Sequence record: PV844354.1
Direction: 5' to 3' (one strand)
Origin: Pseudomonas phage EKU1
Length of the DNA: 57,133 nucleotides
Within the stretch, counting starts at the first letter, position 1. Each line of letters begins with the position of its first letter. Both the position numbers and the translations under genes were made by a program. The notes under the pieces were generated by a model, which was not told the origin of the DNA, did no database searches, and saw only the letters and a list, made by a program, of their open reading frames with translations. Positions 45,000 through 45,300 of this stretch are shown piece after piece.

Positions 45000-45300
45000 T
45001 CCGAAAAAAGTATGAAGTAGGCGTGGCGGGAAGTTGGAGCCCGTCTGGGGTTCCTGTCCTTGCGCTTAGGTTACTTGGGATTCTTACCTGAAATAAATTC
45101 GCCCGAGGAAATCGACCTGCGAGGAGGGCCCGAGAATCCTTGTTGAGGCTTTCGGCTGTCCGAAGGGCTCTCGGGGGCTAAGGTAAGTAAGTTAAGTAAG
45201 TTAAGTATCTATCTATCTATCTATCTATAAAGGGCTGTTTTATATGGCCTTTTTGCCCGCTTGACTTTTTACTTCTTCGGACGTGGAAGTGAAGCGCGAC
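45000..45300. repeat. Regulatory inverted-repeat element, copy B (minus-oriented CATACTTTTTTCGG box, TGCGCTTAGGTTACT, (ACTTA)-iteron complement AGGTAAGTAAGTTAAGTAAGTTAAGTA, (TATC)6 microsatellite, TATATA, then plus-strand promoter)
   Basis: Reverse complement of 45000-45260 aligns with 19640-19880 (see findings). Confidence 0.6.
45261..45296 (+). promoter_or_regulatory. Promoter with TTGACT/TTTACT −35 (CTTGACTTTTTACTTCTTCGG) driving the head operon; no canonical −10 seen
   Basis: Shares the −35 consensus CTTTACTTCTTCGG; downstream box GGAAGTGAAG. Confidence 0.4.

Follow-up and report, generated by a model that had tools for sequence, protein, structure and literature searches.

The window analyzed here, the whole 57,133-nucleotide record PV844354.1 of Pseudomonas phage EKU1, carries in the gap just before terS a conserved regulatory element, copy B, which is paralogous to a second element, copy A, located before the SNF2 helicase gene. 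Both are operon-head cassettes, copy A heading the replication arc of the genome, and the reading that we tentatively favor is that copy B is a boundary cassette with face-to-face promoter arms at the head of the packaging/head operon. The cassettes are built from a 9-bp promoter word, CTTNNNTTA, present as three units in a forward arm and as three perfect units in a reverse arm ~100 bp downstream. Since the promoter units point in opposed directions, the arms are face-to-face promoter-like arrays, and they are mutually complementary as well. Judged by its identity of ~90%, the window is a YuA-like Yuavirus genome; around copy B it is ~85-93% identical to the genomes of YuA, M6, LKO4, Churro, PAE1 and ~50 other Yuaviruses.

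Anatomy and genome setting of the two cassettes

Copy B occupies the 660-bp gap at 44852-45511, extending past the 45000-45300 segment in which it was originally noticed. The gap is bounded by the stop codon of the last small open reading frame (ORF) at 44849-44851 and by the ATG of terS at 45512, the same placement as in Churro, YuA and LKO4, and so directly precedes terS, in agreement with the original prediction of an element upstream of the head operon. The parts of the cassettes, and the other window features referred to below, are as follows.

44871..44938 (+), large hairpin GCCCCGCCGG ... CCGGCGGGGC with a 10-bp stem, read directly from the sequence, just after the last early/middle-arc ORF
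44966..44998 (+), the box twice more in forward orientation, as TGCGCTTGGGTTAC and as TGCGCTTGGGTTGG, the latter promoter-like in having TATGAA behind it (45011-45016)
45061..45094 (+), 15-mer (45061-45075) and forward arm (45065-45088), whose successive units are CTTAGGTTA, CTTGGGATT and CTTACC
45098..45106 (+), conserved box TTCGCCCGA, located where the forward-arm transcript is predicted to start
45107..45179 (+), GC-rich, variable interval between the arms, containing local hairpins, the least conserved part (27-57% invariant columns)
45180..45205 (+), TAAG array or reverse arm, with GGTAAGTAAGTTAAGTAAGTTAAG at 45182-45205, complementary to 45065-45088
45206..45231 (+), (TATC)5.8 ending in TATAAA, AT-rich, where the UP element of a reverse-arm promoter would be
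45241..45340 (+), conserved non-coding block with three hairpins and a reverse box
45396..45430 (+), terS promoter TTGGCG-16-TATACT (hexamers 45396-45423; predicted start near 45430)
45512..45514 (+), terS start codon (gene frameshifted in the window)
19645..19815 (-), copy A, before the SNF2 helicase gene, with its 15-mer at 19801-19815 and TAAG array at 19668-19693
32437, 34470, 39601, 40342, 42092, 51111 (+), phage-specific promoter motif CTTTACTTCTTCGG-N-ACTATACTTCTTCA, 44-nt units
11398-11554, 19900-20010, 28584-28689, 37792-38559, 42943-43376, 49525-49777, poly-G or G-rich stretches

Read in the gene direction, the order of parts is identical in copies A and B: 15-mer, ~100 nt, TAAG array, microsatellite. 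This anatomy was established directly, as were its conservation, the complementarity of the arms and the rule of two copies per genome. The shared 15-mer had been predicted; it is TGCGCTTAGGTTACT at 45061-45075 (+), with an exact reverse-strand match at 19801-19815 and a further occurrence with 2 mismatches at 44966-44980 (3 matches in the window, 0.04 expected). The predicted complement of the ACTTA iterons is likewise present, as the 26-mer AAGGTAAGTAAGTTAAGTAAGTTAAG at 45180-45205 (+) and 19668-19693 (-), with 0 expected, and so is the (TATC) microsatellite, with 5.8 units at 45206-45228. TATATA, also assigned to copy B, is absent from it; the single occurrence in the window lies in copy A (19645-19650), and copy B has TATAAA at 45226-45231. 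The microsatellite of copy A is (AAG)6, read as TTC at 19651-19670. Sequences resembling GCGCTTRGGTT are concentrated in the cassettes, 6 of the 8 matches in the window falling in copies A and B (1.6 expected in total).

Both arms consist of three tandem 9-bp units followed by a -10-like hexamer. In the forward arm, a σ70-type -35 sequence, TTAGGT (45066-45071), is separated by 17 nucleotides from the -10 sequence TGAAAT (45089-45094); the reverse arm, read on the opposite strand, is CTTAACTTA, CTTAACTTA and CTTACC in succession. The box TTCGCCCGA keeps its relative position in Yuavirus copies A and B, in Bordetella copy A, and in L041, L065, L022, L053 and L056. Upstream of the arms, the structure at 44871..44938 is, from its sequence and location, likely an end-of-operon hairpin. 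Downstream of them, the region 45229-45340 includes an A-tract/hairpin/T-run resembling a terminator (45229-45256), a hairpin whose 17-bp stem has a C(UUCG)G cap (45258-45296), and a reverse box, GAACCTAAGCGG (45306-45317), that pairs with CTGCTTGGG; RNA folding of this three-hairpin block gave z = -2.8. No transcription start site (TSS) or termination site is mapped within 45241..45340 in YuA. An intrinsic terminator in copy B was considered and set aside: our scan finds none, and the LKO4 record annotates terminators at the A-tract/hairpin/T-run, yet no YuA 3' end lies there.

The 17-bp hairpin contains TTGACT (45261-45266) and TTTACT (45268-45273), which had been proposed as the promoter driving TerS-TerL. 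The hexamers exist, but they are not the terS promoter: a scan finds no -10 sequence at 16-18 bp spacing, and there is no TSS at the orthologous YuA positions 33244-33265. The actual terS promoter is TTGGCG-16-TATACT, which agrees with the consensus at 9 of 12 positions and is the sole σ70-like site found by the scan. Its orthologue in YuA is P014 (33417, +; TTGGCT-17-TATACT), the sole TSS in YuA copy B, with reads into gp50 (PMC10914365), and the LKO4 record annotates a promoter at the same place. The proposal that copy B is a cos site joined to a TTGACT/TTTACT late promoter for terS-terL can draw on the presence of these -35-like hexamers at 45261-45273 within a highly conserved block. It is opposed by the lack of a -10 sequence at 16-18 bp and by the position of the YuA TSS at the downstream TATACT promoter. 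Circularly permuted genomes and headful packaging have been reported for relatives, both Luminis, Vanta and Lydia and the family more widely, and because of this permutation a cos function is excluded; we regard the proposal as a whole as extremely improbable.

Other signals in the gap were sought. There is no canonical match to a σ54 promoter in the gap, where several TGG/TGC pairs were checked by eye for GG-N10-GC spacing; the σ54 promoters of YuA lie elsewhere, at 38.4, 40.9 and 47.2 kb. Rfam 15 gave no match at its gathering score in the whole window, and the only match within 44850-45520 was at chance level (E = 3). Three-frame stops, Shine-Dalgarno-like UAAGG, Hfq ARN motifs and Crc A-rich motifs in (AAG)6/(TAA)n were weighed by inspection of the sequence and rejected, since (TATC)6 does not fit them and the microsatellites are not followed by a start codon.

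Local blastn against YuA (AM749441) showed that window positions 14-30981 are the reverse complement of YuA 19484..1/58663..47586, and that 30982-57133 are forward-oriented YuA 21173..46060, so that half of the genome in the window is flipped relative to all sequenced relatives. The breakpoints are intragenic, in gp26 (primase) and gp68, and the junction at 30981/30982 fuses the middles of both genes. This junction is spanned by 0 of 141 matching phage records and looks like a misassembly or an artificial rearrangement. The poly-G or low-complexity G-rich stretches stand in for homologous sequence of roughly equal length, and they account in part for the strong GC skew of the window. There are many 1-nt indels and broken genes: the gp49 homologue (44394-44620) and terS (from 45512; alignment with Churro_052, tblastn) are frameshifted, and the helicase start codon is ACG. 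By these comparisons the window is a rearranged, error-laden copy of a Yuavirus genome, and orientation-based inferences from it are therefore unsafe. In YuA, every gene lies on one strand and copies A and B are direct repeats, before gp02 (SNF2 helicase) and gp50 (terS); the same arrangement occurs in Churro, phage 185, PAC7, PAC9, Max and IMG/VR contigs. Hence the copies are inverted in this window, as the original prediction described them, but the description does not hold as biology, since they are direct repeats in all relatives checked.

Promoter data and complementarity of the arms

The YuA σ70 promoters were reportedly found by promoter trap, by Ceyssens et al. in 2008. The AM749441 record annotates two promoter-trap fragments, 489-568 and 33014-33160, as σ70 promoters of "medium activity (1000 MU)", with -35 sequence TTAGGT within the 15-mer and -10 sequence TTCAAT or TGAAAT. 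The first fragment includes the 15-mer arm of copy A and the second that of copy B. ONT-cappable-seq tables for YuA list 21 TSS (Putzeys et al. 2024, PMC10914365; bioRxiv 10.1101/2023.10.13.562163). One of them, P002, starts within copy A at 612 on the minus strand (TTAACT-18-TAAACT), and its antisense RNAs end at 411 (201 nt) and 60 (552 nt) (PMC10914365). The 50 nt upstream of the P002 start are the reverse complement of the (AAG) microsatellite and the TAAG array, the array being its -50 to -14 region. In the window, the counterpart of P002 is formed by TTAACT (19669-19674) and TAAACC (19693-19698) on the + strand, with an equivalent start at ~19706. The regulatory role originally proposed for the element is thus supported, in that the 15-mer overlaps the -35 sequence of a YuA trap promoter and, in copy A, the upstream region of a YuA antisense TSS contains the TAAG array.

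Transcript ends were also mapped in this region of YuA, a sense 3' end at 471 and an antisense one at 411 (PMC10914365), and these flank a palindrome of two box copies. Beside copy A in the window, on the + strand at 19840-19885, lies a look-alike of a phage-type promoter, GGGCTTTCGA...GGTCTATACTTCTTCAGG, antisense into the gp01 homologue; it sits within the box palindrome that coincides with these 3' ends. Downstream, P003 at 814 (+) is the YuA helicase promoter, and reads from the TSS at 40 extend to 1004-1068 (PMC10914365); therefore sense RNA across both arms of copy A exists. The trap promoters and the TSS map of YuA describe orthologous DNA, with P002, P003 and P014 all inside the two cassettes, and the window copy differs from YuA by its rearrangement and sequence errors. 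Forward-arm trap activity, the reverse-arm TSS of copy A, the hairpin-associated 3' ends and the terS TSS are all taken from YuA.

The two arms of copy B are complementary: CTTAGGTTACTTGGGATTCTTACC (45065-45088), in the region of the 15-mer, forms 17 Watson-Crick and 3 G.U pairs with the 24 positions of GGTAAGTAAGTTAAGTAAGTTAAG (45182-45205), which 0 of 300 shuffles reach. All lineages examined have a complementary upstream arm, with 15-21 of 24 positions in Watson-Crick pairs as against 11-13 when shuffled (0-3 of 300 shuffles match). In an 18-lineage alignment of related sequences, whose arm register was picked by maximal pairing, 79.8% of cells pair in register versus 21-55% when the arms are slid, a value reached by 0 of 500 shuffles; 9 arm pairs have changed on both sides.

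The complementarity raises the possibility that the cassette acts at the RNA level only, the arms forming a 24-30-bp imperfect stem in read-through RNA that serves as a site of RNase III-type processing or insulation between the mRNAs of the two arcs. The intergenic RNase III sites of T7 and the stems that flank rRNAs are precedents. In both copies the arm-arm stem closes the minimum-free-energy fold, compensatory changes occur at the inner end of the stem, and where only one side has changed, G.U pairs predominate on the gene-sense strand (28 cells). Moreover, the 3' ends mapped in YuA at 471 (+) and 411 (-) fall on smaller palindromes of the box, and copy A lies within a YuA transcription unit that runs from 40 to 1004. 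However, pure pairing does not account for one arm being invariant while the other drifts, a 9-nt periodicity would be meaningless in a helix, the z-scores are weak, and the differences of G for A are explained equally well by the needs of a -35 sequence (TTGAC). No processed ends are reported within the element in YuA. An explanation confined to RNA is in our judgment unlikely.

The core of the arm unit, TTACTT, is also the -35 box core of a phage-specific promoter family, CTTTACTTCTTCGG...TATACTTCTTCA, with six occurrences in the window. These six motif copies belong to the class of YuA P008/P010/P012/P013/P016, which is inactive without phage factors, and the flanks of their -35 sequences are often complementary (GGGGC..GCCCC, CCAC..GTGG).

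From these data we infer a boundary or switch function for the cassette, and its operation at copy B. In a circular or concatemeric genome there would be two unidirectional arcs, from helicase to gp49 and from terS to gp01, each headed by one cassette. A cassette would comprise end-of-arc hairpins (44871-44938 in copy B, the box palindrome in copy A), the facing arms, the three-hairpin block and the promoter of the operon. The three units of the forward arm would act as a promoter for host σ70 (TTAGGT/TGAAAT), and those of the reverse arm as a promoter facing it over ~65-100 bp, with the AT-rich microsatellite in the position of a UP element. Polymerases arriving from the preceding arc would be stopped by the hairpins, or opposed by counter-transcription and by pairing of sense and antisense RNA; the arm-arm stem in read-through RNA could be a further means of uncoupling the arcs. 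The downstream operon would then start from its own promoter, TTGGCG-16-TATACT, 200 bp further on. At YuA copy A, the putative convergent pair would consist of the forward arm, active in the trap, and the reverse arm, with the TSS at 612 (-).

Several observations weigh against this boundary-cassette reading. In the YuA infection data no TSS is called for the forward arm of either copy, nor any antisense TSS in copy B, and neither copy is the source of any small RNA among the ncRNA candidates in Table S7 of the YuA study; that both arms are active at one copy is thus putative, and is a weak point. The -10 sequence of the reverse arm is degenerate in copy B (TTAGCC), and its final T is missing in most relatives. 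In a distant phage (L009/L034) the array faces the genes and is followed by TATATT; therefore it would be a sense promoter there, which agrees with its being a promoter word but not with an antisense role that is fixed. Given the maximized register and the relatedness of the sequences, the statistics on pairing err on the optimistic side, and the fold energies are unremarkable (z = -1.9 for copy B, +0.15 for copy A). Lastly, 18-24 nt that remain exact across phages of 38-65% GC are more than a σ70 promoter normally needs, and the fact that the array is unchanged between such distant phages suggests that it has a sequence-specific reader.

Among the closest parallels are the face-to-face promoter pairs in the switches of coliphage 186 (pR/pL), P2 (Pe/Pc) and P22 (ant/sar), which control lysis and lysogeny in temperate phages by way of repressor operators. 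As proposed for the cassette described here, these systems have facing promoters over ~65-100 bp, with transcriptional interference and complementary RNAs. In contrast, the present putative pair is found in a lytic phage, is duplicated at the heads of two operons, and has arms that are arrays of one 9-bp word. A second parallel is the antisense promoter P001 of phage LUZ19, for which a role in stopping read-through around the circular genome has been proposed (PMC10914365). P001 resembles YuA P002 in that it is of the phage type, sits at the boundary of a module and runs antisense to genes that are all encoded on a single strand; it differs in belonging to another phage family with another polymerase, and it is without a repeat array, a microsatellite or a second copy.

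Conservation, spread and other possible functions

Among 13 natural Yuaviruses, invariant columns make up 87-90% of 45061-45120, 87-97% of 45241-45330 and 77-97% of 45391-45510. These three stretches equal or exceed the adjacent terS coding sequence in conservation, and the stretch just 3' of the upstream ORF varies almost freely. The most conserved non-coding block, 45241-45340, is ~80% identical in the Bordetella Vojvodinavirus phages. A core of 181 nt is 95-98% identical in all Yuaviruses, again ~80% in the Bordetella Vojvodinavirus phages, and is present in duplicate in almost all of 63 records (126 places). Farther afield, a 24-mer from the array occurs exactly in 32 IMG/VR stretches and the 18-mer TAAGTTAAGTAAGTTAAG in further contigs. 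Searches by tblastn with YuA proteins placed the TAAG motif 250-370 nt upstream of terS homologues down to 31% amino-acid identity, ~205-250 nt upstream of homologues of the gp02 helicase down to 41%, and ~2.1 kb from one at 25%. Contigs carrying the motif span 38-65% GC. Two copies are present in the complete or long contigs, namely YuA, M6, CN1, L053+L056, L022+L065 and L009+L034/L013. In L076/L079, copy A contains a segment of the copy-B type, therefore exchange between copies appears to have taken place.

The flanking microsatellite differs between lineages, being (TATC)6, (AAG)6, (TAA)5-8 or (TA)n, and is constant within each. A phase-variable microsatellite promoter was for this reason rejected: the numbers of (TATC)6 and (AAG)6 units are constant across nearly all Yuavirus copies and only the unit type differs between lineages. 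An invertible DNA switch was also rejected, as more than 50 Yuavirus copies have one orientation and only one very distant phage differs.

The cassettes might alternatively be replication origins, in which the 9-bp TAAG iterons would bind a conserved phage initiator, the microsatellite would unwind and the nearby promoters would activate, with two origins per genome. Comparable systems are oriL and oriR of SPP1, and the primary origin of T7, which combines a promoter with an AT-rich region. The TAAG unit, 9 bp long, is repeated in tandem 2.7 times, and at least 5 times in L042/L068; an AT-rich tract adjoins the array, and the core of copy B is the stretch of lowest GC in the YuA genome. One copy always lies beside the helicase gene, the sequence of the array is invariant across divergent phages and is found in either orientation relative to the genes, and in YuA there is little sense transcription across the core. 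Against this, there is no turning point of GC skew at either YuA copy, the arrays of L041/L046 are without an adjoining AT-rich tract, the genomes are without an identified initiator gene, and the linkage of the second origin to terS is left unexplained. SPP1 oriL/oriR, iteron origins and SPP1-type pac sites share with the cassettes short boxes beside an AT-rich tract; further shared features are two distant copies, one by the replication genes, and a packaging gene nearby. The units here are however 9 bp as against 17-22 bp, there is no skew signal, some lineages are without the AT-rich tract, and binding by an initiator or TerS is putative. We consider replication origins an unlikely explanation.

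The cassettes could also be binding arrays for a conserved phage DNA-binding protein, a cofactor of phage promoters or a repressor, with the TAAG array as the high-affinity site and the boxes as weaker operators that shut off or time the promoters. The sequence CTTNNNTTA/TTACTT recurs in both arms, in the additional boxes and in the -35 portion of the CTTTACTTCTTCGG promoter family; promoter-like sites of either orientation have boxes in their -35 regions or spacers; P002 of YuA is classed among the phage promoters (PMC10914365); and invariance across hosts fits a reader encoded by the phage. The distances from arm to arm, 74-155 bp, show no helical phasing of the kind expected from protein looping, and this explanation overlaps the boundary-cassette reading instead of excluding it. 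As an explanation in its own right we think it rather improbable.

The protein encoded just upstream of copy B is the gp49 homologue (44394-44620; YuA 32591-32839, L038; Pfam PF20788 YuA_Gp49, PDB 3PES), which is 80-97% identical between genera whose TerS proteins share only 33-59% identity. It was considered as the array-binding protein, being much more conserved than TerS, but was set aside for want of a link to DNA.

Proximity to terS raises in turn the possibility of a pac site, an option named in the original prediction, in which TerS would bind the boxes or the TAAG array upstream of its own gene and the headful series would start there. In all lineages the array precedes terS by 250-370 bp, even where TerS identity falls to 31%; the repeated boxes around an AT-rich center resemble the pac site of SPP1; and 45241-45330, where conservation of non-coding DNA is highest, belongs to copy B only. 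Yet all complete genomes have a second copy of the array at the helicase gene, which argues against a purely packaging function; TerS is poorly conserved while the array is invariant, and relatives are described as being without a specific start site. We judge a pac site very unlikely.

Taking up the invariance of the array itself, it is possible, though doubtful, that the TAAG 9-mer array is the cis site of a highly conserved phage function, either a cofactor that redirects RNA polymerase to the phage promoters or an initiator for two origins. If true, it would be a new and widespread control element organizing a two-arc genome, present exactly twice per genome, at the heads of the replication and packaging arcs, in a broad siphovirus clade of 38-65% GC and several host genera, and always with a complementary promoter arm.

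Two sets of sequences turned up by these searches stand apart. In unrelated low-GC IMG/VR contigs (L044/L058/L070, L047/L052/L074 and L061), CTTAACTTACTTAACTTA, the reverse complement of the 18-mer, is located directly 5' to an ATG without a Shine-Dalgarno sequence, where from its position it may act as a leader or translation signal. Yuavirus or Vojvodinavirus DNA is also contained in DYKZ01000001/2 (L076/L079), labelled as an Anaerolinea thermophila metagenome-assembled genome (MAG), in RDDZ01 (L080/L081), a Microbacteriaceae MAG, and in PP337211, the 175-kb record of 'Escherichia phage ERS-1'; this is probably binning or assembly contamination.

Implications for YuA-like phages

Parts of the element are already annotated in the YuA and LKO4 records. 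The paired-cassette architecture, the complementarity of the arms and the deep conservation of the TAAG array appear to be previously undescribed: in the parts of them available to us, the YuA sources treat the sites singly and do not mention that they pair up in a cassette, that the arms are complementary, that the TAAG array is invariant or that it also occurs outside Yuavirus, and a literature search, whose reach did not extend to the 2008 YuA paper, found no mention of the 24-base motif in phage papers.

YuA-like phages are used in Pseudomonas phage therapy, and they time their early and late genes with the host polymerase alone; the known pieces of this timing include σ70 promoters, σ54 promoters and promoters that need a phage factor. 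The duplicated cassette offers a handle on that phage factor or mechanism, its core 24-mer being identical in phages of Pseudomonas and Bordetella and in uncultured relatives. Were it an origin or a pac site, it would mark where phage replication or packaging starts. In metagenomic relatives, TAAGTTAAGTAAGTTAAG can serve as a sequence tag to locate the heads of the terS and helicase operons.

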